Source: an archaeon
GTDB taxonomy: Archaea > Nanobdellota > Nanobdellia > SCGC-AAA011-G17 > PNOQ01
Reading direction: 5' to 3'
DNA length: 64,000 nucleotides
Assembly: GCA_018671245.1 (NCBI GenBank)
Contig: JABHIB010000002.1
Location: 141 to 64,140, forward strand
Part shown: piece after piece, positions 16,014 to 37,292 of the stretch
How the letters are laid out: every line of letters begins with the position of its first letter
Position numbering within the stretch: the stretch's first letter is position 1
Program-made: the position numbers and the translations under genes
Notes under the pieces: generated by a model
Databases searched by the model: none
What the model was told of the DNA's origin: nothing
Seen by the model: the letters and a program-made list of their open reading frames with translations, nothing else

Positions 16014-17192
16014 ATGAAGTTTGCACATTTGGCAGATTGCCACATAGGTGGTTGGTCTGATCTTAAATTAAAAGAGTTGAATATGAGGGTTTTTTCTAAA
16101 TCTATTCAAGAATGCATCAATAGGGAAGTAGATTTTGTTTTGATTGCAGGAGATTTATTCAATACTGCTTTGCCTAGTATTGATTTGATTAAAGAGACTA
16201 CTTTACATTTGAAAAAGTTGAAAGATAGTGAGATCCCTTGTTATATTATTCCTGGAAGTCATGATTATTCTCCTTCTGGTAAAACTATGCTTGATGTTTT
16301 TGAAAATGCAGGTTTAGTTGTTAATGTTGTAAAATTTTCTGAAGTTGATGATAAGGTAAATCTTAAGTTTTGTAGTGATAAAAAAACTGGTGTGAAAATT
16401 ACTGGTTTGTTTGGTAAGAAGGGCGGATTAGAAAAAGGTTATTATGAAGTATTGAATACTAAAAATTTAGAGGATGAACAAGGAAGAAAAATATTCATGT
16501 TTCACACAACTTTAACTGAATTTAAACCCGAACATTTAGCTATGATTTCTTCTGAACCTGCAGCTATTTTACCTAAGGGTTTTGATTATTATGCTGGAGG
16601 GCACCCTCATTATATATTTAATGAAGTTAAGGAACCTTATGGCAAGATAGTTTATCCTGGTGCCTTGTTCCCTAATAATTTCGGCGAATTAGAAAGATTT
16701 GAACATGGAGGATTTTGGATTAATGAATTTGTTGGTGAAGAGATTAATTCCGAATATGTCCCTATTAAATTAAAAGAAGTTAAAAAGTATCGTATTGATC
16801 TTAGTGGTAAGGATTCTAGTCAAGTAAAAGATTATATTTTAGAGAAGATAGAGAGTATTGATGATTGCATTGTTTTACTAAGGCTTGTTGGAACTTTAGA
16901 GTCTGGGAAATTGTCAGATATTGATTTTAAATCATTATTTGATTCCTTAAGTTCTGCATTTATAGTTTTGAAAAATACTTCTGAATTAAAAATAAAAGAA
17001 TTTGAAGAGTTAGATATTATAGATGAAGATAATGTTGAAGAAGAACTTGTTTCTAGACATGAAAAAGATGAAAATTTTGTTAATGGTCTAATTGATTCAC
17101 TAAATACTGAAAAAATGGATGGCGAGAAAAACTTTGATTTTGAAAGTAGGATATTGAATGATTGTTATAAGGTACTAAATTTAGAAAAATGA
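16014..17192 (+). CDS. mre11: DNA repair nuclease Mre11
   Basis: ADCHIG, AGDLFN, PGSHD, GGHPH phosphoesterase motifs; precedes rad50. Confidence 0.92.
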   Translation: MKFAHLADCHIGGWSDLKLKELNMRVFSKSIQECINREVDFVLIAGDLFNTALPSIDLIKETTLHLKKLKDSEIPCYIIPGSHDYSPSGKTMLDVFENAGLVVNVVKFSEVDDKVNLKFCSDKKTGVKITGLFGKKGGLEKGYYEVLNTKNLEDEQGRKIFMFHTTLTEFKPEHLAMISSEPAAILPKGFDYYAGGHPHYIFNEVKEPYGKIVYPGALFPNNFGELERFEHGGFWINEFVGEEINSEYVPIKLKEVKKYRIDLSGKDSSQVKDYILEKIESIDDCIVLLRLVGTLESGKLSDIDFKSLFDSLSSAFIVLKNTSELKIKEFEELDIIDEDNVEEELVSRHEKDENFVNGLIDSLNTEKMDGEKNFDFESRILNDCYKVLNLEK

Positions 17193-19252
17193 AGATAAAA
17201 AGTATTAGATTAAGAAATATACGGAGTTATGTTGATCAGAGAGTTGATTTTCCAAAAGGTAGCATCTTACTAAGTGGGAATATTGGTTCTGGTAAGACTT
17301 CTTTATTATTAGCTATTGATTTTGCATTATTTGGTTTGAGAAGAGGGAATTTATCTGGCTCTGGATTGCTAAGGAAAGGTGCTGAAGAAGGTTCTGTTGA
17401 ACTTGAGTTTGATATTTCTGATAAGAATATTTTGATAAAAAGAAATTTGAAGAAAACTATCAATGGTGTCAGTCAGAGTGCAGGTTATTATAGCGAGGAT
17501 GGATCATCTGAAGACCTTACACCTGTTGAGCTTAAACAGAAGATATTAACCCTATTTAATTATCCAAAAGAGTTTTTGACAAAGTCTAAATCCTTGATAT
17601 ATAATTATACTGTTTATACACCTCAGGAAGAGATGAAGGCTATTCTGCTTGCGGATTCTAAAGAACGATTAAATATACTAAGAAGAGTATTTGGTATTGA
17701 TAAATATAAATTAATTGTTGAGAATTCTAGGATATTAGTTTCTGATTTAAAAGGAAAAAAGAAAGAGTTTGAGATTAGAAGTTCTGATTTAGATAGTTTG
17801 GTTAGTGAAAAGAAAATTAAAGAATTAGAAATAAAAGATTTTGGTAGTTCTTTGGAGAAATTGAAGCAGTCTTTGAATAATGTTTCTGTCGAGATTGAGT
17901 CTAAAAAGAGAGAGTTGGAAGAGTTTGAAGAAAAGAGTAAGAGAAGGGATGGAGTCATGAAGAATCTTGATATTTTAAATAATATAATTGAGAGTCTTGC
18001 TGAAAATTTTAGTAAGAATAATAGTGAGATTAAAAAATTAAATGAGGATATAGATTCACTTGAGGAATCAATCGATGGGAAGAGTGTTGAAAATTCTGAA
18101 TCTCTAAAAAACGAAGTTCTTGAGATAGAAAATGAAATTAGAGTTTTAGAGTCTGAGAATAAACATATTGTTAGAAGTATTGGGGAGATAGAGTTCGGGA
18201 TAAAATCTTCTGAAAAAATAAAGAGTGAAATAGAAGTTATTGACGTTTGTCCTACTTGTAGACAAGAGGTTAGCGAAGCTCATAAGTGTAGTATTGATGA
18301 GAAAGAAGATGTAAATCTGAGGGATTTAAAGAGAAATTTAGAAGAACATAATAAGAAAGAAGATGAAAATGATAAACGTATGTTTGAGTTGAAAGAGAAG
18401 TTAGAAAGATTTAGAATTGTCCAGGGAGATTATAGTGTTTTAAAAATTAAACATGAAAATTTGTTAGAAAAAAGAGAGAGAGTTGCGAATCTAGTAGATG
18501 AAAAATCTCTAATGAAAAAAGAGATTGGTAGTTTTAATTCACAGAAAATTGATTTAAATAAGGTTATGGATAGTTTTCCAGATAACTTTGAAATATTTAA
18601 TAGTCTAAAAAGTAGTGTTGATGAATTATTGAAAAAGAAAAATGAATTGAGTTCCCAATATAGTTCTGTTGAAACTAGGTTTGGTATGCTTTCTGAACGA
18701 ATTGAGAATCTCTCTTCTGAGATTAGTAAAAAATTAGTGTATAGGGAGAGAGTGGTTAAATATTCCCAACTTGTAGATTATATTGAGAAAGAGTTCGTTC
18801 AGTTAATTCAAACTATTGAGAGATCGATGATGAAGAAGGTTCATTCTGATTTCGATGCTTTGTTTAAAACTTGGTTTGGGTCTCTGATCGAAAGCGAAGA
18901 TCTTGAATTAAGTTTAGATTATGAATTTAGTCCAATTATTAGTCAAAATGGGCATGATATTGATTATGGTCATCTAAGTGGTGGTGAAAGAACTGCGGCA
19001 GCTTTGGCATATAGGTTGGCTTTGAATCAAGTGATCAATACAATAATGTCTAGTATAAATACTAAAGATATTCTGATTTTAGATGAACCTACTGATGGTT
19101 TTTCATCTGAACAGGTTGATAAGCTTAGATTAGTTTTGGAAAGTTTAGATGTTGAGCAGACTATTATTGTTAGTCATGATCCTAAAATTGAGAGTTTTGT
19201 TGACGAAGTCATAAGATTTGAGAAGAAAGAGGGCGAGAGTTTCATTTGTTGA
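17189..19252 (+). CDS. rad50: DNA repair ATPase Rad50
   Basis: Walker A GNIGSGKT, zinc hook CPTC, LSGGE, LILDEPT, SHD; long coiled coil. Confidence 0.93.
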   Translation: MKIKSIRLRNIRSYVDQRVDFPKGSILLSGNIGSGKTSLLLAIDFALFGLRRGNLSGSGLLRKGAEEGSVELEFDISDKNILIKRNLKKTINGVSQSAGYYSEDGSSEDLTPVELKQKILTLFNYPKEFLTKSKSLIYNYTVYTPQEEMKAILLADSKERLNILRRVFGIDKYKLIVENSRILVSDLKGKKKEFEIRSSDLDSLVSEKKIKELEIKDFGSSLEKLKQSLNNVSVEIESKKRELEEFEEKSKRRDGVMKNLDILNNIIESLAENFSKNNSEIKKLNEDIDSLEESIDGKSVENSESLKNEVLEIENEIRVLESENKHIVRSIGEIEFGIKSSEKIKSEIEVIDVCPTCRQEVSEAHKCSIDEKEDVNLRDLKRNLEEHNKKEDENDKRMFELKEKLERFRIVQGDYSVLKIKHENLLEKRERVANLVDEKSLMKKEIGSFNSQKIDLNKVMDSFPDNFEIFNSLKSSVDELLKKKNELSSQYSSVETRFGMLSERIENLSSEISKKLVYRERVVKYSQLVDYIEKEFVQLIQTIERSMMKKVHSDFDALFKTWFGSLIESEDLELSLDYEFSPIISQNGHDIDYGHLSGGERTAAALAYRLALNQVINTIMSSINTKDILILDEPTDGFSSEQVDKLRLVLESLDVEQTIIVSHDPKIESFVDEVIRFEKKEGESFIC

Positions 19253-21263: not shown

Positions 21264-22328
21264 ATGGAAGAAAATAATAAAGAAAATATTGAACCAAAAA
21301 CATTATTATCTAAAATACTAATTTTCTTTGCTTTTGCGATTCCCATTGCAATTCTTTTGTTTGCATTTTACATTAATTATCTTCCTTTTGGATATTCCGA
21401 GAACTATGAATTAACAATTGATAGTGAAGGGATTATTTCCCCGCTTTCAAATGAAATTTATATTACAAATTCTATTGGGAGGAGAATATTGTCTTTGCCA
21501 GATGGAATAAATGGGCAAGTGAACCTTATTGTTGAACCTAAAGTAGTACTTAATAATGCAATTGTAAATATTTCAATTAATGGGGATGAAGGCGTTTATA
21601 TTGGCTCTTCCTTGAAAATGAATTTATCTGAACTAACTTGGGATTATGAATGGAAATTTAGTGAAGGAATTCCAGAATATTTAGAAGGAACGGCAGAGTA
21701 TAATGGAGAATTGGGCTGTGTTTATTTTGATGCTATAAAAGAACAAACATTATACTTACCAGGTTCCTCCAGGATGTTTGAATCTGGGCCAATGTCCATT
21801 TATGTTAAATGGATGCCTTCAAAGACAAGCGAATTTCTTGGAGATTATCAAAGATTAGTTGGACACTATAATTGGGAAATCTACCAAGGATTAGGGGAAA
21901 TTAAATTTAAAATTGGAAGGATGAATAATGTAACTGGAAGGTTCTATGAAATTAATTATCCCATAGGTGAAAAAATTTGGTTTGAAAGTGAACATGAATT
22001 ATTAGCAATTTATTGGCCCGATGTTTCTGATAATAATGGCCATATTGAATTATTTGTTGATAATAATTTTGTTGAAAGAATTGATTTTGGTGAAGATATA
22101 ATTTATACTGGGTATAATAGTGAAAATGATTTGGGTTTTGGTTGGAGTCCACATAGTTATGGGAAAAATCCTTTTTTTGATGGTTGCATTTATGAGGTAA
22201 AAATCATTAATAATAAAATAGAAGAAAAGAAATATATTGATTCTTTTAATTTCGATAGTTTTTTATTGGTAATTCCAATTGTTGGAAGGGGAAACCTTAG
22301 TTCAATAAATATCAGGATTTCACAATGA
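21264..22328 (+). CDS. membrane-anchored protein with LamG/ConA-like domain
   Basis: N-terminal TM; IELFVD...FFDGCIYEVKI LamG-like pattern. Confidence 0.55.
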   Translation: MEENNKENIEPKTLLSKILIFFAFAIPIAILLFAFYINYLPFGYSENYELTIDSEGIISPLSNEIYITNSIGRRILSLPDGINGQVNLIVEPKVVLNNAIVNISINGDEGVYIGSSLKMNLSELTWDYEWKFSEGIPEYLEGTAEYNGELGCVYFDAIKEQTLYLPGSSRMFESGPMSIYVKWMPSKTSEFLGDYQRLVGHYNWEIYQGLGEIKFKIGRMNNVTGRFYEINYPIGEKIWFESEHELLAIYWPDVSDNNGHIELFVDNNFVERIDFGEDIIYTGYNSENDLGFGWSPHSYGKNPFFDGCIYEVKIINNKIEEKKYIDSFNFDSFLLVIPIVGRGNLSSINIRISQ

Positions 22329-24475
22329 AACAAGGATTTTATTTAGTGGGGTTTCTTTTTTTTATTAATCTTTCAATAGCCTCTTTTATTTTACTTTTAT
22401 TAAATAATTTTACTTTGCTTAAAATCGATTTCTTATTAAATTCTAAATGGTTTTTTTCTATTGGAACTTTTTCGTTATTACTCTCTTTATTATTGAAGTA
22501 TAATTTTAATTTATTAAAACATAAAAAAAATAGATTTATAGAAAGTATTTTTTTAAGTTCCTCATATTATTTTTTATCTTTTTTAGTTATAATCATAATT
22601 AATCAATTTTTAAAATTAAATTTTTTAACTGGAAGGTTATTTTACTTCATAATTTTTGCAATCTTTTTTGGATTTTTGACTTTTTATAAAAATAGGGATT
22701 ATGTTGAAAAAAAAATTGAAGATGAACAGATTTCAAAAAAGAATAAGAAATTCTTTTATGCTTTTGGATTTATTTTATTTCTTTTTATTCAAATATATAA
22801 AATATATTCTACGGGGATCGGAACAGATGAGGGAAATTTCCTATACACCACAAAATTGCTTTTTGAAGAAAATTCATTATTTTTAGATTTCTGGTCTAGA
22901 GAGAGCCTTTCACTATTTTTCCTCGTTCCTTATTTTAAACTCATCTCCATTTCAATAATTAATCTGAGATATTTTGTTTTAATTTTACATATAATCTTCT
23001 TTTATTTATCTTATTTAATAGTAGAAAAAATTTATCCCAATAAAAAATGGAATCCTGGAATTCTGACTTTTATATTAATTGTTTTTACATTTAATGGGCC
23101 GCTTGACTTTTTCCAAGGAATTTTTTACCAATTTTCTTACCTCTTTTATTCGTTAATCACTTTTCTGATGCTTTTTTATTGGAAACATTCTTCTTACAAA
23201 AAATTATTTTTAATTGGGTTTATTATTGGGGCTGGAACACTCTTTTATAAAGGAGTTGAATTATTTATAGTAATAATACCCCTATTTATTTTAATGGGGA
23301 ACTCGCTAGATAAGAGGAGGGCCTATCTTGCCTTTTTTTGTTCATTTTTGATTCCATTAATTTTTTATTGGTTATACTATTCTATTTTCACAAATATTTT
23401 TCACATATATTCAATTATTTTAAAGGATGTGCTGCAAAAGTTTTTCATTATTGCTTTTAGTTATTTGGCATTATTTTATCTCAGTTCATTTACTAAAATA
23501 AAAAAAATTATTACCGAAATTAATTTGGTGATTATTTCAAATATATTCATTCTTTTAATAATTAGTTATCTTCTTTTTCAAGACTATCAGTTATTTTTTA
23601 ACAGTTTTTATTCTGGAGCGATTTTTCAATTTATGATAATTATTATTTGTTTGCAATCATTAAATCTTGCAATCTTGAAAAATAATATCTTCTTAAAAAT
23701 AATTTATCTCTTCATGAATCTTGGTATTTTAATATTTGGATTTGGAAGTAGGGGATTTTTTACAAATATTCCATTAAATTATCACATAATAATTTTTATT
23801 GCATTCTTAATATATACCTTATACCTTTTTATTCAAGGTTTTCAATTAAAATCTTCAAATTCTCAAATCAATATTCTTAAAATAGTAATCTTTGTTAATT
23901 TATTTTTTGCCATTTCACTAATTGGAGGATATTTGATGCCAACAAGATTTCAGTCTATTTTAGGAATATTTCAAATTTTAATTTTTGGATCAATTTTCAT
24001 AACTAAGAAAAAACATATCCTTCTTTTCTTTATTTTATTCTCTTTATTTTTTTCGTTTTTCTCTTCAATTAATTTGTCTAATGATCTTACATATTATGAT
24101 CGGCAAACATTTCAAGAAACTGTAAATTACTTAAATTCTAAACCTAATGTGGATATCTTTTCTGCAGATACCTCTATTTTATCTGAGATAGGCCATAATT
24201 CAATAATTTTATTCCATTCTCCCTTCCATTTCAGAGAGGAAAAAGATATTTATTTCTATGAAGGAATTGAAAAAAAATATTTTAATAAAGATATTTCTCT
24301 TTCAAAAAAAGAAATATTGTCCAAATTAAAATCTGAAAAACCAGAGATTATTTTTGGATCCTGGAGGGCTACATTTAGGTTATTTGAAGATATTGAATGG
24401 AGGGAATTTTTAGAAGAGAATTATCAAGAAGAAAAAAAGATTGGAAGAATAACAATTTATAGACTTATTTCTTAA
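22325..24475 (+). CDS. large polytopic membrane protein, probable GT-C glycosyltransferase
   Basis: Many TM helices; loop DE motif (GTDEG); in a glycosylation cluster. Confidence 0.6.
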   Translation: MKQGFYLVGFLFFINLSIASFILLLLNNFTLLKIDFLLNSKWFFSIGTFSLLLSLLLKYNFNLLKHKKNRFIESIFLSSSYYFLSFLVIIIINQFLKLNFLTGRLFYFIIFAIFFGFLTFYKNRDYVEKKIEDEQISKKNKKFFYAFGFILFLFIQIYKIYSTGIGTDEGNFLYTTKLLFEENSLFLDFWSRESLSLFFLVPYFKLISISIINLRYFVLILHIIFFYLSYLIVEKIYPNKKWNPGILTFILIVFTFNGPLDFFQGIFYQFSYLFYSLITFLMLFYWKHSSYKKLFLIGFIIGAGTLFYKGVELFIVIIPLFILMGNSLDKRRAYLAFFCSFLIPLIFYWLYYSIFTNIFHIYSIILKDVLQKFFIIAFSYLALFYLSSFTKIKKIITEINLVIISNIFILLIISYLLFQDYQLFFNSFYSGAIFQFMIIIICLQSLNLAILKNNIFLKIIYLFMNLGILIFGFGSRGFFTNIPLNYHIIIFIAFLIYTLYLFIQGFQLKSSNSQINILKIVIFVNLFFAISLIGGYLMPTRFQSILGIFQILIFGSIFITKKKHILLFFILFSLFFSFFSSINLSNDLTYYDRQTFQETVNYLNSKPNVDIFSADTSILSEIGHNSIILFHSPFHFREEKDIYFYEGIEKKYFNKDISLSKKEILSKLKSEKPEIIFGSWRATFRLFEDIEWREFLEENYQEEKKIGRITIYRLIS

Positions 24476-25382
24476 TCTTTAAATAAATGTACCCTATTAT
24501 CCCTAAAATTATTGAAGGGATTAATATTAATAAATGATAAAATAAAATTTTTGGTAAAATTTTATCATAAGTGAATCCAAATAAAACTAAAAAATAGGTC
24601 CAACCTGCCTCAAAGATTCCAAAATTTCCAATTGTTTGGATTGGAAAAAGTCCAACTAAAAGAAGAGTTAAAGAAATAAATACTATTTTAATAAAAGATA
24701 AATCAATTTCTAAAAGAATGAATACTATATATGTTAAAAATATTCTTGATAACCAATAAATAAAAGAGAAAATGATTATTATTAAGAGTGTTTTTTTAGA
24801 AAGATCCCTAAAAGAGCCTATTCCCTTTTCTAAGAAATTAATTATTCTTTTCATTTTATTGTTTTTGAATTTTGTTCTTATTTTAATAACTGCCCAACAT
24901 AATATAAAAAATATGAGAAGGGAGATTGTAAAAAGAATCGAAATTTTCCCAATGAGATTATTTTGGTTTTTTATCCCAATAAAAAAACTTGAAACTAAAA
25001 ATAGAGTATAAACTACTAGATAATCAATAAATCTTAAACCCATTAATCCAACTGAGGTTTTTGAATAGGGCATTTTGAAATATTTTCTAAATCCTTGAAT
25101 ATATGAGAATTCTCCTGTCCTAAGGGGAAGTATACTTAACATCAAATTTGAGAAAGATAATAAACAAAATAATTTTGAACAAATTTTTATAGAGTAGATA
25201 AGTGAATATCTTATAGTATTTATTAATTTAATTATCATGAACATTAATAATGAAATAAATAATATTAAACTATTTTTTTCACTAAATAAATCAAGAAGGT
25301 TATAATTAATTTCTTTAAATAAACAAAATAAAATTCCAAAAGTCAGGATGACTGAAATAACTAATTTTAATATTTTTTTCAT
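24465..25382 (-). CDS. UPF0104/lysylphosphatidylglycerol synthase TM (flippase-like) protein
   Basis: LPLRTGEF, RFIDY, GNFGIFEAG motifs. Confidence 0.8.
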   Translation of the reverse strand: MKKILKLVISVILTFGILFCLFKEINYNLLDLFSEKNSLILFISLLMFMIIKLINTIRYSLIYSIKICSKLFCLLSFSNLMLSILPLRTGEFSYIQGFRKYFKMPYSKTSVGLMGLRFIDYLVVYTLFLVSSFFIGIKNQNNLIGKISILFTISLLIFFILCWAVIKIRTKFKNNKMKRIINFLEKGIGSFRDLSKKTLLIIIIFSFIYWLSRIFLTYIVFILLEIDLSFIKIVFISLTLLLVGLFPIQTIGNFGIFEAGWTYFLVLFGFTYDKILPKILFYHLLILIPSIILGIIGYIYLKIKK

Positions 25383-26416
25383 TTTTCTACATTCTCCCTA
25401 TTAAAGTTTTTAAACCAATATTCTATTTCTTCATTTGAAACTTTTTTCGACAATTGAATTTTAATTCTCTTAATTAACATTCTTGGGATTAAAAATATAA
25501 ACGAAAAGTGTGCCTTAATTAAAACCTCTATCAATCCGGCAAATCCTATATTTCCTCTTAATTTTTTTATAGAAGAATTATTTCCTTTCTTTGCGTATTC
25601 AATCTTTAATTTAACATTTGAAAAAAGAAATTTTGCAAATTTCCAAGAAGAGAAATTCTTGAATGCTGTTAAAAGAGTATTTCTTTCTGAATAATATGCT
25701 TTAAATTTAGATGCAGATCCTCCTGTTATGGAGTGTAAATGGATCAACTTTGCATTTACAGACAAATAAGATTTCCACCCCAATAATCTCCCCCTAAATC
25801 CTAAATCCAAATCTTCAGCATAAGCAAAATATCTTTCATCAAAAAATTCTTTATCTCTCCTATAAATCTCTTCAAGCATCTCTCTCTTGTATAATGGTGC
25901 AACTCCTCCCGGGACAAAAATTTCTTTGTCGGAATTCAAATTAACCTCCTTGTCTTTTTTTCCAAAACCAATTGATATCCCTCCTGGCTTATTTAGCTGT
26001 AAGGGGCCCTCCAAGCTTAGGCCCGCATTTTGTATTTCCCCTGTTTTAAAATATGCTTTACTGGAAACCATTCCAATTTTTTTACCTCTGTCTGCGGTTT
26101 TGATTAACTCTTTTAACCAATTTTTATCAACAATGGTATCATTATTTAAGCAAACTATATATTTCGTTTTATTATCTTTTAATGATTTTTTTATGCCCTC
26201 GTTCATCCCTTTCGCGAATCCTTTATTTTTATCTAATTGGAAAATGTTTGATTTTGGAAAGTTCTTTTTAACATGGGCTATAGAATTATCTGTAGATCCA
26301 TTATCTATAAAATAAACTTCAAAATTTTTATATGTTTGATTATAAACTGAATTTAAACAATCTTTAATGAGGCCCTTTCCATTCCAATTAAGGATTATTA
26401 TTGAAGCTTTTTTCAT
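25379..26416 (-). CDS. GT2 family glycosyltransferase
   Basis: IILNWNG, IDNGSTD, LNND, FAYAEDLDL; start ATG 26416 after a GAAGGAG RBS. Confidence 0.9.
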   Translation of the reverse strand: MKKASIIILNWNGKGLIKDCLNSVYNQTYKNFEVYFIDNGSTDNSIAHVKKNFPKSNIFQLDKNKGFAKGMNEGIKKSLKDNKTKYIVCLNNDTIVDKNWLKELIKTADRGKKIGMVSSKAYFKTGEIQNAGLSLEGPLQLNKPGGISIGFGKKDKEVNLNSDKEIFVPGGVAPLYKREMLEEIYRRDKEFFDERYFAYAEDLDLGFRGRLLGWKSYLSVNAKLIHLHSITGGSASKFKAYYSERNTLLTAFKNFSSWKFAKFLFSNVKLKIEYAKKGNNSSIKKLRGNIGFAGLIEVLIKAHFSFIFLIPRMLIKRIKIQLSKKVSNEEIEYWFKNFNRENVEK

Positions 26417-26426
26417 CTCATCTCCT

Positions 26427-26684
26427 TCAAATATATATTTCTTGCATTTTTTTACTTTTGTTGTCAGTAGCTTGACCATAATTTTTGTTTATATCTATTA
26501 TTTTTACTTTTGAAAGTTTTTTAAGTTCTTTTAGAGAATTATCGGATGAACCATCATTAACATATATAATTTTATAGGTTCCTGAAAGTTGATTCATTAC
26601 TTGTTTAATTTCTTTATCGAGAATTTTCATATTATCTTCCCCTTCATATATTGGAATGCCAACTGAATATTTTACCATTTTCAT
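26427..26684 (-). pseudogene. truncated duplicate of the 5' end of the GT2 gene at 27781-28722
   Basis: First ~73 codons are near-identical to that gene (MKMVKYSV...NYGQAT), then the sequence diverges. Confidence 0.85.
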
Positions 26685-26691
26685 TTTATTT
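26465..26691. repeat. ~227-bp direct repeat, copy 1 (copy 2 at 28503-28729)
   Basis: Ungapped alignment at offset 2038, roughly 90% identity by eye. Confidence 0.9.
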
Positions 26692-27784
26692 CATTTAAAT
26701 ATTTTTTAACAATTTTTTCATATCTAAAATTTAATTTATATCTTTTCCTTGAGTTTTTCATAAATTTGGTTAATAATTTTTCATTTTCTAATAATATTTT
26801 TAATTTATTTTTAATTTCTTCAATATTTTCTCTTTTAACTAAAAATCCAACGTCTTTTGATACTGTTTCCTTGCAGGCAGTAATATCTGAGGACAAGATT
26901 GCACAACCGCAACTCATGCCTTCAATAAAAACAATTCCTTGACTTTCTCTTTCGGATAAAAGTGAAAAAATTTTTGATTTGTTTAATAGATTTGAAAATT
27001 TTTGGCCTTTATTATTTATCCATCCAGTAAAAATAATATTTTTATTTTTATTTGCAATTTTTAATAATTCTTTCTTATATGGCCCATCTCCTACGATGTA
27101 GAGTTTCCAATTTTTTGGATCTAATTCATTAAATCCTTGAATTAAATATTGATAACCCTTTCTTTTTAAAAGCCTCCCAGAACTTAAAATGATATTTTCT
27201 TTTTTGATTGATCTGTTCAAATAATCCTCCGATCCATTTGGAATGGTTATAATATTATATCTCCCAATTTCTTTTTTTATTAGATTTGCTAAGTAACCAG
27301 AAGGAGTTGTTAAAAATTTTGATTCCTTGCAAATATTATTTAATATTGGGCCAGTGAATTTATGAAGTATTTTAAACCTATCTGGGTTATAATTTGGCAC
27401 ATCACTTCCATGGGCAGTTATAATATAGGGGATTTTAAATTTCTTTTTAACCCATAAAGCAACAATTCCAGTTGGAATAATAAAGTGGCAGTGACAAATA
27501 TCATACCTATTATCTTTCAAATGTTTTTTTAAGAATTTTTTAGCAGAGATTATGTAAGTTAATTGTTCCCAAGGATGACATATCTCTTTTTTAGAACGTA
27601 AACATTTGACTCTATGGATATTAATCCCTTCTTTTACTTCAAAATGGGGTAAATCTTTGTAACCCATTGTCACAACATCTACCTTATGACCTAATTTTAC
27701 ATATCCTTTAGAAATTTCATATGAAACGGGTGAAGCTCCTCCTCCAAGGGGAGGAAATTCATAATTTAAAACCAATATTCTCAT
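26681..27784 (-). CDS. GT4 family glycosyltransferase
   Basis: YEFPPLGGG, TAHGSDVP, GRLLKRKG, ESQGIVFIEGM. Confidence 0.92.
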   Translation of the reverse strand: MRILVLNYEFPPLGGGASPVSYEISKGYVKLGHKVDVVTMGYKDLPHFEVKEGINIHRVKCLRSKKEICHPWEQLTYIISAKKFLKKHLKDNRYDICHCHFIIPTGIVALWVKKKFKIPYIITAHGSDVPNYNPDRFKILHKFTGPILNNICKESKFLTTPSGYLANLIKKEIGRYNIITIPNGSEDYLNRSIKKENIILSSGRLLKRKGYQYLIQGFNELDPKNWKLYIVGDGPYKKELLKIANKNKNIIFTGWINNKGQKFSNLLNKSKIFSLLSERESQGIVFIEGMSCGCAILSSDITACKETVSKDVGFLVKRENIEEIKNKLKILLENEKLLTKFMKNSRKRYKLNFRYEKIVKKYLNEIK

Positions 27785-28722
27785 TTCCCTATAACTTCCC
27801 TGATATAATATCTTTTTTCATAAGGTGAACTATTTAACTTTATTTTTATCAATATATTTAGTATCATTCCAAATCCAAAAGATAATAGTGCCATCATCAT
27901 AAAGAAAAATCCTAAGAAGAACCATCCATTTCTATTTAAACTTAAACCTTCAAATATTCTTTGATAAAGTGACCATAAGAAAGATAGTCCTCCAACAAAA
28001 AAGGCTCCAATACTAAAATATCCGAATATATGCAGGGGCCGTTGAGAATATTTTTGCATAAACCAAATATACACCAAATCAATTAAACCTCTAACTGCTT
28101 TAGAATAACCATATTTAGTTTCCCCATATTTTCTAGCATGATGATTGACCACTTCTTCACCTATCTTAAATCCTTTCCATTTTAATAACGCTAGAATATA
28201 TCTATGCATCTCTCCTTGCAAATCTAAAGCTTTTATTGCCGTTCTTCTATAAACTCTCAGAGTACATCCAGTATCATGAACTTGATCTTTAATTATTATT
28301 TTTCTAAGAAGTCTTCCGATTCTAGTTAGTACTTTAATTCCAGGGGCATCTTTTCTTTTCTTTCTCCACCCCGCAACTACATCCAATTTATCTTTTTCTA
28401 ATCTTTTTAGTAATTTTGGGATATCTTTTGGATCGTTTTGTAAGTCTCCATCTAAAGAAATAACAATTTCACCAGTACTTGATTTAAATCCTGCGTCCAT
28501 TGCAGTAGCTTGACCATAATTTTTGTTCAGATCTATTGTTTTCACTTTTGAAAGTTTCTTAAGTTCTTTTAGAGAATTATCAGATGAACCATCATTAACA
28601 TATATAATTTCATATGTTCCTGAAAGTTGATTCATTACTTGTTTAATTTCTTTATCGAGAATTTTTATATTATCTTCCTCTTCATATATTGGGATGACAA
28701 CTGAATATTTTACCATTTTCAT
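27781..28722 (-). CDS. GT2 family polyprenol-phosphate glycosyltransferase (DPM1/ArnC-like)
   Basis: VNDGSSD, LDGDLQNDP, DTGCTLR; two C-terminal TM helices. Confidence 0.92.
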   Translation of the reverse strand: MKMVKYSVVIPIYEEEDNIKILDKEIKQVMNQLSGTYEIIYVNDGSSDNSLKELKKLSKVKTIDLNKNYGQATAMDAGFKSSTGEIVISLDGDLQNDPKDIPKLLKRLEKDKLDVVAGWRKKRKDAPGIKVLTRIGRLLRKIIIKDQVHDTGCTLRVYRRTAIKALDLQGEMHRYILALLKWKGFKIGEEVVNHHARKYGETKYGYSKAVRGLIDLVYIWFMQKYSQRPLHIFGYFSIGAFFVGGLSFLWSLYQRIFEGLSLNRNGWFFLGFFFMMMALLSFGFGMILNILIKIKLNSSPYEKRYYIREVIGK

Positions 28723-28729
28723 TTTATTT
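28503..28729. repeat. ~227-bp direct repeat, copy 2
   Basis: Matches 26465-26691. Confidence 0.9.
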
Positions 28730-28862
28730 TAACCCTCTCAAGTATTTAAGCTTTAATAAATAATTGAAAACCAAACCTTTATAAACCTTTCTAAACTCCT
28801 CACTTCCGAGTAATAACAAAATAAAAAACAATTAGATTTATATATAGAAAACAAACTACAAA

Positions 28863-30113
28863 ATGGCAATGAATAGCAATAAACACAAGATTTCAAGCAT
28901 ATTGTTTACGACTTTAATAATTTTCACATTAGTATTAATGGGCCCAGCGTCTGCTATTACTATTAATATAGGGGAACCTAATGATGCAAATCAAGGTGAA
29001 GATGTACAATTTCAAGTAAGTGTTGATTTAGACACGCCCGATATGTATTTGCCGATTGCCTATACAACTTTAATTTTCACAAATCCAGATAATACTCAAT
29101 TCGAGTGTAGAGTATATAATGATGGATCAACTAATTGCGATAATATTGAGGTAATAGTAACATCTAATTTAACTTATGGACAAGGTATTCAATATGGTTA
29201 TGGCTATGGTTATGGTTATGGGTATGAATACACTCATTTCGGATATGGTTATGGCTATGGTTATGCTGGTGAAAACGGGCAAATGACTTATGATGTAACT
29301 TTACATTTAGAAAGTGATTCCCAAATTGGAGATTATGCTGTAAGGGCAGAAACCTATGTTGCTAGTGAAGATTCAATTAATTCTGAATACTCTCCTTGCG
29401 AAATTATGTTGGGGATGTACAGAACACATTATGTTTTAATTAATCAAGAAGGATCATATTATGATCCTGAATTAGATTTAAATGAAGATGGAACAATTGA
29501 TTTATCTGATATAGTTGTTTTTGCAACTAATTATTCTGGAGATGCAGAATTGTTTGGAAGATTCCAAGAGTTTATGAGATTTAATGGTGATCAAACTTTT
29601 AATCCTGCTTTGGATCTGAATGGTGATGGGATAATCAATTTATCTGATATTGTTTTATTTGCTAGTAATCAAGAAGAATCTTGGTGTGCAGTACAATTGG
29701 ATTTAATAGATGAAGGTGTTGAAAGGACCTATGTTTCAGATGAAGTAGAATTTACAGTTTCAAGTGTGCCTGTTGAACAATCTCAAACTGGAAATTATGG
29801 TGGTGGGAGAAGTTCAGGCGGTAATAATCAACCTGTGGCTGATGTAGAGCCTGTTGAAGAACAAAATGCTGAAGAACAAAATGCTGAAGATTACAATAAT
29901 CCAGAAACTTCAACTGGTGATAAATTAGAAACTTCAACTGGTGACGAGAATATAGGATTTTTTAGTGGATTTTTTAGTGCTATAACTGGTGCAGTAGTTG
30001 GTGCAGGTGAATCACTAGGTCTTGGAGAAACAATGTATTATTTGTTTGCTCTATTTTTGTTAGGGATGATAGTTGTTGGAATAGCAAGAAGATTCAGAAA
30101 AAAATCTGAATAA
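28863..30113 (+). CDS. secreted, membrane-anchored surface protein with GY repeats and two dockerin/EF-hand-like loops
   Basis: Signal peptide; GYGYGYGYGY; DLNEDGTIDLSD and DLNGDGIINLSD; ITGAVV then C-terminal TM with a basic tail. Confidence 0.75.
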   Translation: MAMNSNKHKISSILFTTLIIFTLVLMGPASAITINIGEPNDANQGEDVQFQVSVDLDTPDMYLPIAYTTLIFTNPDNTQFECRVYNDGSTNCDNIEVIVTSNLTYGQGIQYGYGYGYGYGYEYTHFGYGYGYGYAGENGQMTYDVTLHLESDSQIGDYAVRAETYVASEDSINSEYSPCEIMLGMYRTHYVLINQEGSYYDPELDLNEDGTIDLSDIVVFATNYSGDAELFGRFQEFMRFNGDQTFNPALDLNGDGIINLSDIVLFASNQEESWCAVQLDLIDEGVERTYVSDEVEFTVSSVPVEQSQTGNYGGGRSSGGNNQPVADVEPVEEQNAEEQNAEDYNNPETSTGDKLETSTGDENIGFFSGFFSAITGAVVGAGESLGLGETMYYLFALFLLGMIVVGIARRFRKKSE

Positions 30114-31257: not shown

Positions 31258-31827
31258 ATGGTAAAAATCTTAACTTTTGATGAATTGAACTCTTCTGAGA
31301 TAATTAAAAGAATGAAAGAAGGAGATATTTTTATTTATCCAACTGATACAATCTATGGAATTGGATGTAATGCCTTGAATCAAAAGAGTGTTGATAAGAT
31401 TCGTAAATTGAAAAAAAGGGGAGGAGATAAGCCATTTTCTGTCATAGCGCCGACAAAAAAGTGGATTGAAACTAATCTAGAAGTAGAGAATAAGAATTAT
31501 ATAAAGAAATTGCCAGGTCCTTTCACTTTTTTGTTAAAAATTAAAGCTAGATCTATTGCTAAAAAGATTAATCCTGGTTTTGATATAATCGGGCTGAGAA
31601 TACCAGACCATCCGTTCAGTAATCTTGTAAAACGGGCAAAAATTCCATTTATTACTACAAGTGTTAATTTATCTTCTAAACTGCCTATAAGGGATACTAA
31701 TAAGATTCCTAAAAGTATCTTAAAACATGTTGATTTTGTTATTGATGATGGTTATCTTCATAGATATCCTTCAACAATTATCGATCTGACTGGCAAGATG
31801 CCAAAAATCATAAAAAGAAGAATGTGA
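31258..31827 (+). CDS. tsaC: L-threonylcarbamoyl-AMP synthase (short TsaC/YrdC type)
   Basis: YPTDTIYGIGC, KKR..KP, PGPFT, GLRIP, TSVNLS. Confidence 0.9.
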   Translation: MVKILTFDELNSSEIIKRMKEGDIFIYPTDTIYGIGCNALNQKSVDKIRKLKKRGGDKPFSVIAPTKKWIETNLEVENKNYIKKLPGPFTFLLKIKARSIAKKINPGFDIIGLRIPDHPFSNLVKRAKIPFITTSVNLSSKLPIRDTNKIPKSILKHVDFVIDDGYLHRYPSTIIDLTGKMPKIIKRRM

Positions 31828-31871
31828 TTATACAAAGGTTTATATATTTTTTAAGATTCCCTATTTATGTA

Positions 31872-33275
31872 ATGGTTATTACTAACAAATTATTGGTCGG
31901 AATATTTGTATTTTGTATATTTTTGTGTAGTACAGTTTATGCGGGAAATTCAATTTTAGTCGCTGAGGAAGAAGTGAAAGAGGTTGTCTTTGCTGGGGAA
32001 ACAGCGGTGTTTAAACTGTCTATATCTAATAGTCAGGATTTTGATGATTCTTTCAGATTTTCAATTTTAAATATTGATTGGGAATTTGAAACCGATCCAT
32101 TTGTGTTGAGTGTCGATTCAGAAGATATTGAAGTGGTTGAAATGAGATTTTCACCGTCTTCAAAATTAGGTCCTGGAAAACATGGAGTTACGGTTTTAAT
32201 ATATTCTTTATCTGATGAGACTGTATTTACTGAGCATATATTTGATATTAGAGTTATAGATTTTTATGATGTGATTAGTACAACTCTTGAATTACCAAAT
32301 GATATTAATCCTCAAAAACAACTTGTTATAAAAGCAATTTTAGAAAATAATTATGATGAACATCTTGAAGATTTGACTTTTAAATTAGAGAGTGATTTTT
32401 TTCAGGATGAAATTAATTTTAGTTTAGCTGCTTATGAAACTCAGGTTAGTGAGTTTTCAGTTGATTTTGAAGGAGATGTTGAAGAAGGAGTTTATGATAT
32501 AGTTTTGAAGATTTATAATGGTGAAGATTTGCTTTTGGAAAACACTGTAGAAATGCTTGTTGGATATTATCCTGATGTTGATGAGACTAGATCTCCGGAA
32601 TCGGGATTTTTGTTGAATAGAATTTTGGTTACAAAAACTAATCATGGCACTTCAACTAGTCATGAACTTTATACTAAAAGATTTTCATTTTTTGAGAGGT
32701 TATTCACAAGTACTGACCCTCAACCTGATCAATTATTTAGTGAAGGAGGATATTATACTCTGCAATGGGAGTTTGATTTATCTCCTGGAGATACAAGGCA
32801 GATATTTATAGAAACAAATTATAGATTTTTTGCCATTCTAGTTAGTGTATTATTAATTTTATTATATTTCTTTTATAATTATTTTAAACGAGATGTATCT
32901 TTAACTAAAAAAGTTGTTACTGTTAAGCATTCTCAAGAGGGAATATCTACTATGAACATTTTATTGGTTTTGAAAAATAAGACTAATAAGACTTTAAAAA
33001 ATCTTAAAGTCATGGATAACCTTGTCAATGTCGCTGGAGAGCCAACGAACTTTGGAACAATAAGTCCATCTGTTGTTAAGAGGGGACATTCTGGGGCTAG
33101 AATGATGTGGAATATTGAAAGTCTTGAAAAAGGTGCAGAAGTTATAATTTCTTATCAAGCAAAATGTAAGGTTCAAGTAATAGGCCACCTAAATATACCT
33201 ACTGCTGTAGCTAAATATATTAAAAATGGCAGGCCTATAGTAGTTAAGTCTAACAAAGTAAAATTATTTTCATAG
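31872..33275 (+). CDS. conserved secreted/membrane protein with Ig-like domains
   Basis: Signal peptide, acidic beta-rich domains, internal TM, basic cytoplasmic domain. Confidence 0.65.
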   Translation: MVITNKLLVGIFVFCIFLCSTVYAGNSILVAEEEVKEVVFAGETAVFKLSISNSQDFDDSFRFSILNIDWEFETDPFVLSVDSEDIEVVEMRFSPSSKLGPGKHGVTVLIYSLSDETVFTEHIFDIRVIDFYDVISTTLELPNDINPQKQLVIKAILENNYDEHLEDLTFKLESDFFQDEINFSLAAYETQVSEFSVDFEGDVEEGVYDIVLKIYNGEDLLLENTVEMLVGYYPDVDETRSPESGFLLNRILVTKTNHGTSTSHELYTKRFSFFERLFTSTDPQPDQLFSEGGYYTLQWEFDLSPGDTRQIFIETNYRFFAILVSVLLILLYFFYNYFKRDVSLTKKVVTVKHSQEGISTMNILLVLKNKTNKTLKNLKVMDNLVNVAGEPTNFGTISPSVVKRGHSGARMMWNIESLEKGAEVIISYQAKCKVQVIGHLNIPTAVAKYIKNGRPIVVKSNKVKLFS

Positions 33276-33294
33276 TATCTTGAGGTAATTAAAA

Positions 33295-34755
33295 ATGGTT
33301 GAGAAAAAAAAGAAATCACCAAAAGTTGAGACATATATAATTACTTCTGCTCAGGCATCCTATTATGAAAACAAAGATGGGGATGTAGTCCCTTATGGTG
33401 GCGGACCTATCAAGGGTAAACCTCATAAAAAATTTCTTAGAGGATTGGAAGTTTGTGCAGATGAGTTGGATGCTGAATTGGTCATTGCTCCGATTGCTGG
33501 TAAGTCAAGCTTAGAAAATATTCTTCACGAAGATCTTGCTGGTTCTACAAATCTATTTGAAGGGACTAATTTATGGTTAAATAAAAATATTCAACTAAGA
33601 GATATTGTTGTTCCTCCTCAAAATGTTGATCCTACAACTGGGAAGGCTAGTCTGATTAGTAAATATAATTCATCTTTGATTATTCCTCATTCCAAACAGA
33701 GATTCTTACCAGTTCCTGTTTTCAATTCGGATTTACCTAGATATTTATTTACTACAGGTTCTGTAACTTTGCCAAATTATAATACTAAAAATCACAAGGG
33801 AGATACTGCTGAAAGAAATCACGTATTCGGTGGAATGGTAGTAGAAGTTATTGATGATACTTTTTTCAATGTTAGAAATCTCAGGGCCTTAAAGAATGGT
33901 AAATTTGCTGATCTTGGTCAGGTTTATAATGGTGATAGTGTTCCTAAAAATATAGGAGTTGATACACTTGTACTTGGTGATATTCACTGGGGTGATCATG
34001 ATGAAGAGACTAGACAAGCAAATTATGAGATGATTGATTTTTTCAAACCTAAGAGGATATTTTTACATGATTTTTTTAATGGACATAGTATAAATCATCA
34101 CGAAAGAAATAATTTTTTGAAGAAAGTTAGAGAGTATGATAGAGATAGACTTTTTTTAGAAGATGAATTTGAGGGATGTTATAATGAACTATGCAATATT
34201 TCTAAAGCTGCTGGAAGTAGAACTGAGATTAATGTAGTTTCATCAAATCATCATGCGTTTCTTCCTAGATATGTAAATAGTGATGCTTGGAGGAAGAGTG
34301 ATTTATGGAATGCAGAGATTGGATCATATTTATTTGCCCAGGGTGTTGCTCAAGGAAGTGATGAAAAAGAAATTGATGATTCTTCATTTTTGATTGAAGA
34401 GGGATTAAAAAGACATGGCAAAATTCCTTCTAATGTTGAAATTTTGAGATTAAAAGATAATTATAGGAGACATGGTTATCAATTAGCTAGTCATGGTGAT
34501 AAAGGTGGCCATGGGTCTCGGGGTGGAAGTGCAAAATCTAGATCTGTTACAGGTGGCGGAAAGAGTATTACTGGACACAGTCACTGTATGGAGATTTTCG
34601 GAGATACTTATGTTGTAGGAACCTCTAGTCAATTAGATCTTCCTTATACTGCTGGCGGAGGATCTGCTTGGATTGCTGCGAATGCTGTCTTATACCAAAA
34701 TGGTAGTGTGCAGATGTTACCGATAATTAAGGGTAAGTGGAAAGCTAAAAGGTAA
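33295..34755 (+). CDS. phage T5 A1-like metallophosphoesterase/nuclease
   Basis: YIITSAQ, PHKKFL, TTGSVTLPNY, LGDIH, HDF..HSINHH, SNH, HGDKGGHGSRG, TGHSH, LDLPY...SAW are colinear with the recalled T5 A1 sequence. Confidence 0.8.
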   Translation: MVEKKKKSPKVETYIITSAQASYYENKDGDVVPYGGGPIKGKPHKKFLRGLEVCADELDAELVIAPIAGKSSLENILHEDLAGSTNLFEGTNLWLNKNIQLRDIVVPPQNVDPTTGKASLISKYNSSLIIPHSKQRFLPVPVFNSDLPRYLFTTGSVTLPNYNTKNHKGDTAERNHVFGGMVVEVIDDTFFNVRNLRALKNGKFADLGQVYNGDSVPKNIGVDTLVLGDIHWGDHDEETRQANYEMIDFFKPKRIFLHDFFNGHSINHHERNNFLKKVREYDRDRLFLEDEFEGCYNELCNISKAAGSRTEINVVSSNHHAFLPRYVNSDAWRKSDLWNAEIGSYLFAQGVAQGSDEKEIDDSSFLIEEGLKRHGKIPSNVEILRLKDNYRRHGYQLASHGDKGGHGSRGGSAKSRSVTGGGKSITGHSHCMEIFGDTYVVGTSSQLDLPYTAGGGSAWIAANAVLYQNGSVQMLPIIKGKWKAKR

Positions 34756-34797: not shown

Positions 34798-35127
34798 ATG
34801 AGACTAGATACAATACTTGAATACTCTGATAGTAAGTTTTATGAGATTGGAGATAGTATAAAATTGGGAGATGATCTGTTTGAAGTCTATGGTATTATGG
34901 ATATGGGCTCTGAATATCTTTATCATCTTTTTCCAAAGTTTGAGAGAGACGAATTAACTGATAACTTGATTAGTAATGGTTATTTAGATGATGTTGCTGA
35001 TGTTTATGTAAATGCGTTTGAGAAGTTTCCTGTATTAGAAGATAACTTATTTAGTAAGGAAAGAAATGAATATATAGATATAAATCTTGGTCAGCTTAGC
35101 AGAATCTATGGATTAGATAATCGTTAA
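34798..35127 (+). CDS. acidic hypothetical protein
   Basis: 109-aa ORF with a TATA-like element upstream. Confidence 0.55.
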   Translation: MRLDTILEYSDSKFYEIGDSIKLGDDLFEVYGIMDMGSEYLYHLFPKFERDELTDNLISNGYLDDVADVYVNAFEKFPVLEDNLFSKERNEYIDINLGQLSRIYGLDNR

Positions 35128-35160: not shown

Positions 35161-35282
35161 CCCTCCATAGCTCAATGGCAGAGCGTTCGGCTGTAGATAC
35201 TGTTTGATTATGTCGTATGACTAAAGATGATTAATAGTTAGCCGTCACCGAAAGGTTCCCAGTTCAAATCTGGGTGGGGGGA
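35161..35282 (+). tRNA. tRNA-Tyr(GTA) with 50-nt intron at 37/38 (35197-35246)
   Basis: Acceptor CCCTCCA/TGGGGGG (C1:G72, A73), D arm GCTC/GAGC, anticodon stem TTCGG/CCGAA, T arm CCCAG-TTCAAAT-CTGGG. Confidence 0.92.
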
Positions 35283-36958: not shown

Positions 36959-37032
<74 letters not shown>

Positions 37033-37049
37033 CTTTAAACTTATATAAA

Positions 37050-37292
37050 ATGGCAGAAAAATTCGATATATCAAAACATATACTTGTACCTAAACATACA
37101 AAGTTAAATGATGACGAGAAAAAAGAGATTCTTGAGCAATTAAATATTGATGAAACAAAATTGCCTAAGATATTCTTAAAAGATCCAGCAGTAAAGAATC
37201 TAGATGTTGTTCCTGGGGATATTATAAAAATTATTAGAAAAAGTCCTACTAATTTAGAAAGTATTTTTTATAGGGTGGTAATAAATGGTTAA
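37050..37292 (+). CDS. rpoH: RNA polymerase subunit H (Rpo5)
   Basis: HILVPKH...LPKI...DP...IIRKSPT...YRVV; real start ATG 37050. Confidence 0.96.
   Translation: MAEKFDISKHILVPKHTKLNDDEKKEILEQLNIDETKLPKIFLKDPAVKNLDVVPGDIIKIIRKSPTNLESIFYRVVING

Follow-up and report, generated by a model that had tools for sequence, protein, structure and literature searches.

A short cellular form of the phage T5 A1 family in the chromosome of a DPANN archaeon, with a candidate role in DNA degradation and nucleotide salvage

The A1-like gene and its sequence motifs

The stretch of DNA considered here, referred to below as the window, comprises 64,000 nucleotides of contig JABHIB010000002.1 (positions 141 to 64,140, assembly GCA_018671245.1) from an archaeon of the Nanobdellota, and it carries at 33295..34755 on the plus strand an open reading frame (ORF) whose 486-amino-acid translation represents a short cellular form of the phage T5 A1 family. 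A1 has been presented as a hallmark of one phage family, with which it is, in the accessible part of that source, said to be "predominantly associated" (10.64898/2026.04.02.716235), and a search of the full-text literature, with supplementary files lying outside it, returned no published description of archaeal, DPANN or Candidate Phyla Radiation (CPR) homologues of A1. The findings assembled below indicate that the enzyme core of A1 is here a selected and long-resident chromosomal gene of ultrasmall archaea, which is shared across domains with CPR bacteria.

The A1-like gene begins 19 nt after the upstream ORF and is probably co-transcribed with it, because that ORF stops at 33275; the ATG is preceded at a distance of 8 nt by a GAGGT ribosome-binding site (33282..33286, plus strand), which can be read directly from the sequence. 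The domain model divides the product into an N-terminal domain (residues ~7-208, 33313..33918, plus strand) with a predicted, degenerate metallophosphoesterase (MPE)-like fold and a C-terminal, predicted catalytic MPE domain (residues ~220-484, 33952..34746, plus strand) that contains D229/H231, H258/D259, N318/H319, H400 and H428/H430. These residues belong to GDIH (228-231), HD (258-259), SNH (317-319), HG (400-401) and GHSH (427-430), which make up the full MPE motif set of the C-terminal half (D-x-H, (H)D, (S/G)NH, H, GHxH) and align with T5 A1. An alignment of 120 relatives shows no variation at H231, D259, N318, H319, H400 and H430 and conservation of D229, H258 and H428 in at least 90% of the sequences. 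The N-terminal half contains IITSAQ (15-20), PHKKFL (43-48), TTGSVTLPNY (153-162) and AERNHVFGGMVVE (172-184). A sequence-only reading of this DNA had listed complete calcineurin-like motifs, the motifs of the N-terminal half and the GAGGT element, and every one of them was recovered, the protein motifs being found in the translation and in alignment with T5. Scans of the protein against Pfam (E<=1, with the Metallophos model included) and NCBIfam gave no match, and a signal peptide or hydrophobic membrane segment was found in none of the 41 cellular A1 copies, for which reason the protein should be cytoplasmic.

Relationship to T5 A1 and to the viral family

By sequence, motifs and predicted fold the archaeal protein is a genuine member of the T5 A1 family. 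Comparison by BLASTP with the product of the T5 A1 coding sequence (L013:1709-3376:-, 556 aa) gave 29% identity over 465 columns (E 4e-42), with residues 43-484 of the query aligned to residues 109-556 of T5 A1, and in PHROGs residues 42-483 matched positions 99-541 of the 542 of phrog_1745 (E 1.7e-87), whose name, "DNA transfer protein", is the family name used for T5 A1 (T5.004); a second, weak PHROGs match was to a metallophosphoesterase PHROG. These spans, together with a MAFFT alignment that included six phage or viral sequences, bear out the earlier suggestion that the protein runs colinear with T5 A1 minus roughly its first 90 residues, and the best profile match is to the A1 family and not to unrelated phosphoesterases.

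Homology extends across the entire two-domain core, with the same MPE motifs I-V and with the N-domain motifs IITSAQ / PHKxFL / TGxxTLxNY / AxxxHxFGxxVVE in common; IITSAQ aligns with "FIITSIQN" of T5, and the N-terminal core domain is conserved in 38 cellular sequences. The archaeal protein differs from T5 A1 in lacking the ~90-residue N-terminal extension of the phage protein (the phage proteins of the alignment carry ~75-100 additional residues at this end, and the archaeal one begins 11 residues ahead of the first core strand) and in possessing an insertion of ~18 residues at positions 22-41 which is specific to the archaeal clade. The two also differ in setting, since A1 of T5 is located in the pre-early region, whereas the archaeal gene is part of a cellular chromosome and has neither A2 nor dmp beside it, and its product cannot participate in two-step DNA injection. 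The short form also occurs in some viral copies, namely L126 (438 aa) and L134, and because of this the missing extension is, judging from the sequences compared, a trait of a subgroup and not a requirement of the family.

A1-like proteins of the same family are encoded by Cellulophaga phi13:1 (gp063), Flavobacterium elemoA, Caulobacter BL47 (gp190), Sphingobium Lacusarx (gp063) and Rhizobium RHEph09 (gp18), and family members in other phages or viral contigs are 25-37% identical to the window protein. A tblastn search of 50,697 phage records matched 1124 of them, 918 with at least 80% of the query covered and all with less than 60% identity; in the best 40 of these 1124 records identity was 24-33%, or 24-30% where most of the query was covered. 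When a profile of 16 close relatives was run against a library of 1.84 billion proteins, 2193 clusters (at 50% identity) were retrieved with E<=1e-3 and 1406 with E<=1e-30, and the matched clusters fall into two size forms, a short one of ~440-480 aa and a long one of 520-680 aa. Neighbouring clusters in the ESM Atlas are ~90% viral, one being named "T5 A1 family protein", and in some long viral clusters a minority of members bear helix-turn-helix (HTH) domains (HTH_23 16%, HTH_8 11%). A scan of IMG/VR with the alignment of the DPANN clade returned, within the limits set by its search patterns, only five distant loci with 27-29% identity over full-length matches, and a scan with a seven-sequence alignment returned 80 viral loci, the best of which (L150/L151) is 37% identical to the window protein. 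The two contigs of this best match (32.6 and 82.9 kb, GC content 0.27) carry a 466-aa copy among glycosyltransferases, a CCA-adding enzyme and large unknown proteins, and they may be cellular (DPANN/CPR-like) rather than viral.

Predicted structure of the two domains

An AlphaFold2 model built from 120 sequences reached a predicted local distance difference test (pLDDT) score of 95.1 and a predicted template modelling (pTM) score of 0.94. Comparison of predicted structures with A1-like models, a check of the kind proposed for the initial assignment, gave template modelling (TM) scores of 0.85-0.86 over the whole length, with a full-length match to A1-like viral predicted structures in BFVD (E 7e-43, TM 0.86) and a match to the model from Pseudomonas phage pf16 (E 5e-40, TM 0.85). 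Among solved structures in the PDB the whole model found only weak MPE matches by Foldseek, the best being Vps29 (E 2.2e-4), and a phmmer search with the sequence yielded only chance-level matches (E ~0.5).

For the C-domain (220-484) superposed by VIA-align, the best solved match was the proofreading exonuclease DP1 of PolD (5ihe_A; Z 13.8, 203 aligned residues, root-mean-square deviation (rmsd) 3.1, 16% identity), and nearby scores were obtained for SbcD (7dog_B; Z 12.5, 14% identity), the polymerase B-subunits (Z ~12) and Mre11 (3qg5_C; Z 11.5, 12% identity). The N-terminal 220 residues, modelled separately (pLDDT 91.5), superpose on Vps29 (5w8m_A; Z 10.1, 156 residues aligned, rmsd 3.5; Foldseek E 1.4e-5), MJ0936 (1s3l_A; Z 8.9) and YfcE (Z 8.7), and like Vps29 this domain apparently has no full metal site, IITSAQ occupying the place of the first metal motif. 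Because the D-x-H metal motif is missing, the N-domain would be non-catalytic, and since it nevertheless adopts an MPE-type fold in the model, the A1 core is predicted to pair a degenerate MPE-like domain in tandem with an active MPE domain, a structural frame which can guide mutagenesis. The similarity of the N-domain to Vps29, YfcE and MJ0936 is one of fold only (6-11% identity), and it differs from them in being fused to the predicted active MPE domain.

The likeness to DP1, SbcD and Mre11 lies in the fold and the two-metal motif set of the archaeal C-domain, whereas no relationship was detected at the sequence level (phmmer against the PDB; 0 Pfam matches). In contrast to DP1 and the B-subunits, the N-domain is modelled as a second MPE-like fold and not as an oligonucleotide/oligosaccharide-binding (OB) fold or a capping domain, and unlike SbcD/Mre11 and DP1 the archaeal locus includes no Rad50/SbcC or DP2 partner, its neighbours not resembling structural maintenance of chromosomes (SMC) proteins. 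The archaeal protein does not belong to the Mre11/SbcD or DP1 families, whose fold its catalytic domain shares.

Chromosomal context and selection

The genome from which the window derives amounts to 615,516 bp in 15 contigs, is 93% complete and contains the A1-like gene in a single copy. Its closest named relative is a metagenome-assembled genome of Candidatus Woesearchaeota, in which the A1-like protein is 95% identical, and with a split RpoB, RpoA'/A'' and RpoH as archaeal markers within the window the host is archaeal and DPANN-like. The stretch is represented in 20 marine or seawater DNA sequencing runs, and no RNA run is listed for it.

Upstream of the gene lie Sua5/YrdC (31258-31827) and, directly adjacent, a 483-aa membrane protein (31824..33275, plus strand), for which neither Pfam, PHROGs nor PADLOC provided a match and which keeps its synteny with the A1-like gene in three members of the genus (L002, L003, L007). 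Directly downstream there is an acidic orphan ORF of 109 aa (34798..35127, plus strand; pI 4.2) that holds the same position in the same three members of the genus, has homologues in only four clusters, all of them close kin and confined to the genus, and is likewise without a Pfam, PHROG or PADLOC match. By its placement this ORF may share an operon with the A1-like gene, and its position alone makes it a candidate inhibitor. It is followed by a tRNA-Tyr(GUA) gene (35161-35282, plus strand; Rfam 54.5 bits), 405 nt past the stop codon of the A1-like gene, with an intron of ~50 nt after the anticodon loop; the default run of ARAGORN missed this tRNA, and its anticodon (GTA) and intron were read by eye. 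Further downstream the order is FKBP, a JAB-like protein, tRNA-Asp, tRNA-Lys, RpoH, split RpoB, RpoA'/A'', NusA, S12 and S7.

The family being mostly viral, the gene could be thought of as a remnant of an integrated virus, or its contig as a viral one that was misbinned with the archaeon, an explanation which the surroundings of the gene make very hard to credit. Pfam and PHROGs disclosed no integrase or phage structural gene within ~13 kb on either side, none of 11 neighbouring ORFs was assigned by PHROGs to a structural, integrase or replication function of phages, and the contig also bears an RNA polymerase operon, ribosomal proteins, tRNAs and Mre11-Rad50. The GC content of the two 2-kb windows over the gene (0.315-0.318) is within the range of most of the window (0.29-0.34), and synteny is conserved in the genus. 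Furthermore, comparison with the 95%-identical relative (L016) gave a ratio of non-synonymous to synonymous substitution rates (dN/dS) of 0.056 for the A1-like gene (111.5 synonymous and 31.5 non-synonymous differences), against 0.094 for the upstream membrane-protein gene and 0.25 for the 109-aa ORF. The A1-like gene is a selected chromosomal gene and not prophage scrap or a binning error. The sequence-only reading had described it as standing alone in a DPANN chromosome, with no phage genes or integrase nearby and with tRNA-Tyr ~400 bp downstream, and it was correct on each of these points: the gene is single-copy and its neighbours are housekeeping genes.

At 16014-19252 on the plus strand, a gene for an Mre11-like MPE (392 aa) and the beginning of a gene for a Rad50-like SMC/AAA_23 ATPase (687 aa) overlap, and the two form the genome's own Mre11-Rad50 operon. 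The idea that the A1-like protein replaces Mre11 was rejected, as Mre11-Rad50 is present in the genome.

Distribution and phylogeny

Counting the window's genome, 16 of 41 close relatives possess the A1-like gene, which is found in all four genomes of the genus, in 13 of the 24 others of the family and in two of the order's 16 other families (one genome each). In CPR bacteria, a single genome out of 401 across the phylum of a Falkowbacteria carrier has the gene, and this is the carrier itself. A pattern scan of 185,579 species genomes, which relied on two peptide patterns typical of this clade and hence describes the clade and not the full cellular range of the family, recovered 42 loci, 35 of them labelled Woese-, Pace- or Nanoarchaeota or "archaeon". 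The remaining seven are labelled bacterial (Falkow-, Buchanan- and Portnoybacteria and two "Gammaproteobacteria" labels); one of the "Gammaproteobacteria" loci carries RecR, L21 and FtsX, and the A1 genes under both of these labels group with the CPR ones.

The named cellular copies form one clade (support 99; FastTree with 194 sequences, IQ-TREE in quick mode under LG+G4 with 75), within which the bacterial copies constitute, in both trees, two separate groups nested among archaeal ones. The identity of the Falkowbacteria proteins to the window protein amounts to 65-66%, a level that speaks for transfer between domains, and the tree topology suggests that the A1-like gene passed to CPR bacteria at least twice. 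All 12 phage and viral-contig sequences of the 194-row tree, and the cultured-phage sequences of the 75-row tree, lie outside the DPANN/CPR clade, the trees being midpoint-rooted, so that the root does not fix the direction of transfer (virus to cell or cell to virus). A viral origin of the cellular clade is plausible from its placement, because the family is ~90% viral by ESM Atlas clusters and the cellular clade is nested among virus-rich clades. The earlier phrase "domesticated viral nuclease" therefore stands in so far as a T5 A1 homologue resides in the chromosome under selection, whereas its viral part is plausible only, the root not being established. The clade consists of chromosomal copies long resident in Woese-/Pacearchaeota-type DPANN archaea.

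At one conserved chromosomal site, the enolase-S2 site, the identity of A1 does not follow that of its flanks: among 36 pairs from nine loci (L019, L026-L028, L030, L039, L047, L054, L056), a small sample of non-independent pairs, A1 identity correlated with the identity of flanking S2 and enolase at Spearman 0.15 and -0.02, compared with 0.54 for flank against flank. In the pair L028 and L047, for instance, S2 is 80% identical and A1 only 41%. Since A1 identity is decoupled from flank identity in this manner, the comparison suggests allele replacement at a fixed site of the chromosome.

Neighbourhoods in other cells and in viruses

The 43 loci compared place the gene in several unrelated housekeeping contexts, including TFIIB-S8e-LSm, exosome-RpoK-enolase-S2, Cdc6, ThrRS and, in CPR, BacA/YceG/L10, and housekeeping neighbours were present in all 15 representative loci scanned. 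Enzymes of nucleotide metabolism recur next to it: GMP reductase/IMPDH is encoded directly upstream of A1 in three DPANN loci, and DUF4406, which we take to be a member of the nucleoside 2-deoxyribosyltransferase-like group, directly upstream in divergent orientation in four CPR loci. Furthermore, a family of small proteins (138-150 aa) with the signature "YFAHPxNxY...ENPNQ...FEDG...SxEETRKRVY" overlaps the A1-like gene by 4-47 nt in five loci and is one gene away in a sixth (L047:7391-7834, L028:4374-4823, L030:6505-6918, L026:5565-5993, L027:4816-5229, L054:5144-5998). The nearest named ESM clusters of this small partner family are DUF4406 and nucleoside deoxyribosyltransferase (NDT), with a score of 0.90, which serves as a lead only towards an NDT/DUF4406-like identity; the family had no Pfam match, and a PDB profile search from a tiny alignment gave 0 matches.

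Other neighbours bear on the explanation that the A1-like protein is a nuclease for DNA repair or for end processing in replication, acting on the cell's own DNA as Mre11/SbcD or PolD DP1 do. A stand-alone LigD 3'-phosphoesterase is encoded within 6 kb of A1 in 12 of the 43 loci, ERCC4, LigT, RecR and RNA ligase are neighbours in one locus each, and the catalytic domain has its nearest solved folds in DP1, SbcD, the B-subunits and Mre11. However, the LigD neighbour is part of one conserved synteny block (enolase-S2) and possibly a bystander, the genome already encodes Mre11-Rad50 in an operon of its own as well as four other MPEs, most relatives do without the A1-like gene, in contrast to core repair genes, and the N-domain is MPE-like where DP1 and the B-subunits have an OB fold, so that a repair function appears unlikely.

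In viruses, A1-like genes occur in replication or nucleotide-metabolism modules, whereas the archaeal gene is part of the core chromosome. It has been observed that dmp adjoins A1 in T5, in Vibrio phage Pontus and in Rhizobium phage RHEph09, that the A1-like gene of the Cellulophaga phage is situated beside ribonucleotide reductase (RNR) and HU, and that viral contig L126, which encodes the short form, has the order ThyA-RNR-UvsX-HNH-[A1]-dNMP kinase-RuvC. In Caulobacter BL47 (L063) and Sphingobium Lacusarx (L065) the A1-like genes are flanked by genes for DNA methyltransferases, which may be a clue to how genomes that bear A1 protect their own DNA.

This last arrangement hints at discrimination by DNA modification and accords with a function in conflict, in which the enzyme would destroy invading viral or plasmid DNA or, by way of a cell-cell connection, be directed against host-cell DNA, and nutrition would not be its main role. 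Such a function would be in keeping with the known role of the family as a viral weapon against cellular DNA, with the patchy distribution of the gene and its repeated passage to CPR bacteria, and with the allele-replacement-like behaviour of A1 relative to its flanks, as far as non-independent pairs can indicate it. The window's locus, on the other hand, has housekeeping genes and not a defence island around it, includes no partner sensor or methylase and gave 0 matches at E<=0.01 for the gene and three neighbours in PADLOC-DB 2.0, a library limited to systems known in 2023; an export signal is seen in none of the 41 copies, and purifying selection on the gene is strong. A primary function in conflict is for these reasons considered somewhat unlikely, albeit a serious contender.

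A candidate DNase feeding nucleotide salvage

The likeliest role of the A1-like protein, by analogy with T5, is that of a DNase which feeds nucleotide salvage. It has been reported that T5 A1 is necessary and sufficient for DNA degradation in vivo and that A1 alone is enough to cause chromosome loss in E. coli (10.64898/2026.04.02.716235, as far as the accessible part of this source extends). Because T5 A1 degrades DNA in vivo and the archaeal protein keeps the whole catalytic core, the latter may be a cytoplasmic, metal-dependent DNase, a proposition to which we assign an even chance. According to this proposal the enzyme would combine a degenerate MPE-like N-domain with a two-metal MPE domain that is complete in its catalytic residues and of the DP1/SbcD/Mre11 nuclease type, in the absence of the HTH-like N-terminal extension of the phage proteins. 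It would hydrolyse intracellular DNA other than the protected chromosome, be this imported from the host or the environment, or invading, and the nucleotides released would feed salvage in an organism seemingly incapable of de novo nucleotide synthesis. In this regard, given that neither a signal peptide nor a membrane segment is present, the enzyme would act on DNA already inside the cell.

A search of the 93%-complete genome for markers of de novo pyrimidine and purine synthesis detected neither orotidine monophosphate decarboxylase nor a PurM/PurL-type AIRS domain, and for this reason the cell must obtain nucleotides or nucleotide precursors by import; the genome does encode RNR and ThyX. 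The nucleotide-processing genes beside A1 at some related loci lend the salvage reading further indirect support. In addition, import and degradation of host DNA as a source of nucleotides has been proposed for a CPR predator, an episymbiotic bacterium (10.1101/2020.11.10.374967, from the accessible text).

Several findings weigh against a DNase that supplies salvage. The accessible parts of the two T5 studies (10.64898/2026.04.02.716235; 10.1101/866236) report no in-vitro nuclease activity for A1, and their authors keep the alternative that A1 activates a host nuclease. Among solved structures, MPEs that are not nucleases come near the nucleases in score for the C-domain (LpxH Z 11.8, YfcE Z 11.5, by VIA-align). 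The gene is patchy in distribution, being carried by 20 of 401 high-quality genomes sampled across the phylum, and as most relatives are without it (13 of 24 in the family have it) these archaea cannot depend on it as their general route of salvage. Of the 41 relatives, 33 have RNR (PF02867) and 7 have NRDD, irrespective of A1, so that there is no sign of A1 substituting for dNTP synthesis. At the locus in the window no gene for nucleotide processing adjoins A1, and the genome yielded neither DUF4406 nor a member of the small partner family; hhalign, moreover, gave the small partner family a probability of only 0.13 against DUF4406, from tiny alignments. Finally, a cytoplasmic DNase would have to spare the chromosome of its own cell. 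A separate idea, that A1 complements ribonucleotide reductase, was rejected on the grounds that PF02867 is present in 33 of 41 relatives irrespective of A1.

The first two of these points also underlie the explanation that the protein is a phosphoesterase but no DNase, with a small molecule or RNA as its substrate (a nucleotide, a cyclic nucleotide, or 2',3'-cyclic or 3'-phosphate ends), the loss of DNA caused by T5 A1 being indirect. The MPE superfamily is functionally broad, LpxH, YfcE, Rv0805 and GpdQ all superpose on the C-domain with Z 9-12, and the Metallophos model of Pfam misses the domain. Nevertheless, A1 was by itself sufficient for chromosome loss in E. coli in the source cited above, the top structural neighbours are nucleases and the phage gene is located in modules of DNA and nucleotide metabolism, all of which renders a substrate other than DNA improbable.

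If the archaeal protein is indeed a DNase, it would offer a testable candidate for a step that is usually assumed, the breakdown of acquired DNA by nucleotide-auxotrophic episymbionts, and it would exemplify the conversion of a viral weapon to a use in the cell. As a natural minimal A1, the short cellular form may be purified more easily and could help to settle whether proteins of the A1 family are nucleases themselves. In a wider scenario, which is put forward tentatively as a real possibility short of a probable one, an ancestor of the Woese-/Pacearchaeota-type DPANN archaea would have captured the chromosome-demolishing enzyme of a phage, shed its N-terminal DNA-targeting extension, exchanged alleles at a fixed site and passed the enzyme at least twice to CPR bacteria. 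The enzyme would then be the core of a "DNA-eating" module, coupled in some lineages to an NDT/DUF4406-like deoxynucleotide-processing enzyme, that makes building blocks from host or foreign DNA; were this true, the module would be a laterally traded trait common to ultrasmall episymbionts of both domains.

Other features of the window

Between the Mre11-Rad50 operon and the A1-like gene, the region at 22000-28800 shows a drop in GC content to 0.23-0.27 and a flip in the sign of the GC skew, and it contains a minus-strand cluster of glycosyltransferases together with an LPG-synthase-like membrane protein; it may be an island for cell-surface glycosylation. A 416-aa protein encoded at 28863-30113 (plus strand) is hydrophobic at its N-terminus, carries a hydrophobic anchor at its C-terminus and contains long (GY)n runs as well as two dockerin-like "DLNxDGxIxLSDIVxFA" repeats; it has no match in Pfam or PHROGs and may be a surface or adhesion protein. 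At 14777-15970 (plus strand) a match to DUF285 ("Mycoplasma protein") extends over four repeats with 454 bits, in this case in a DPANN archaeon. Lastly, the TTG start listed for the RpoH ORF (36975-37292) falls inside tRNA-Lys (36959-37033), and for this reason the true start is probably an internal ATG ("MAEKFDISKH") located ~25 codons later.

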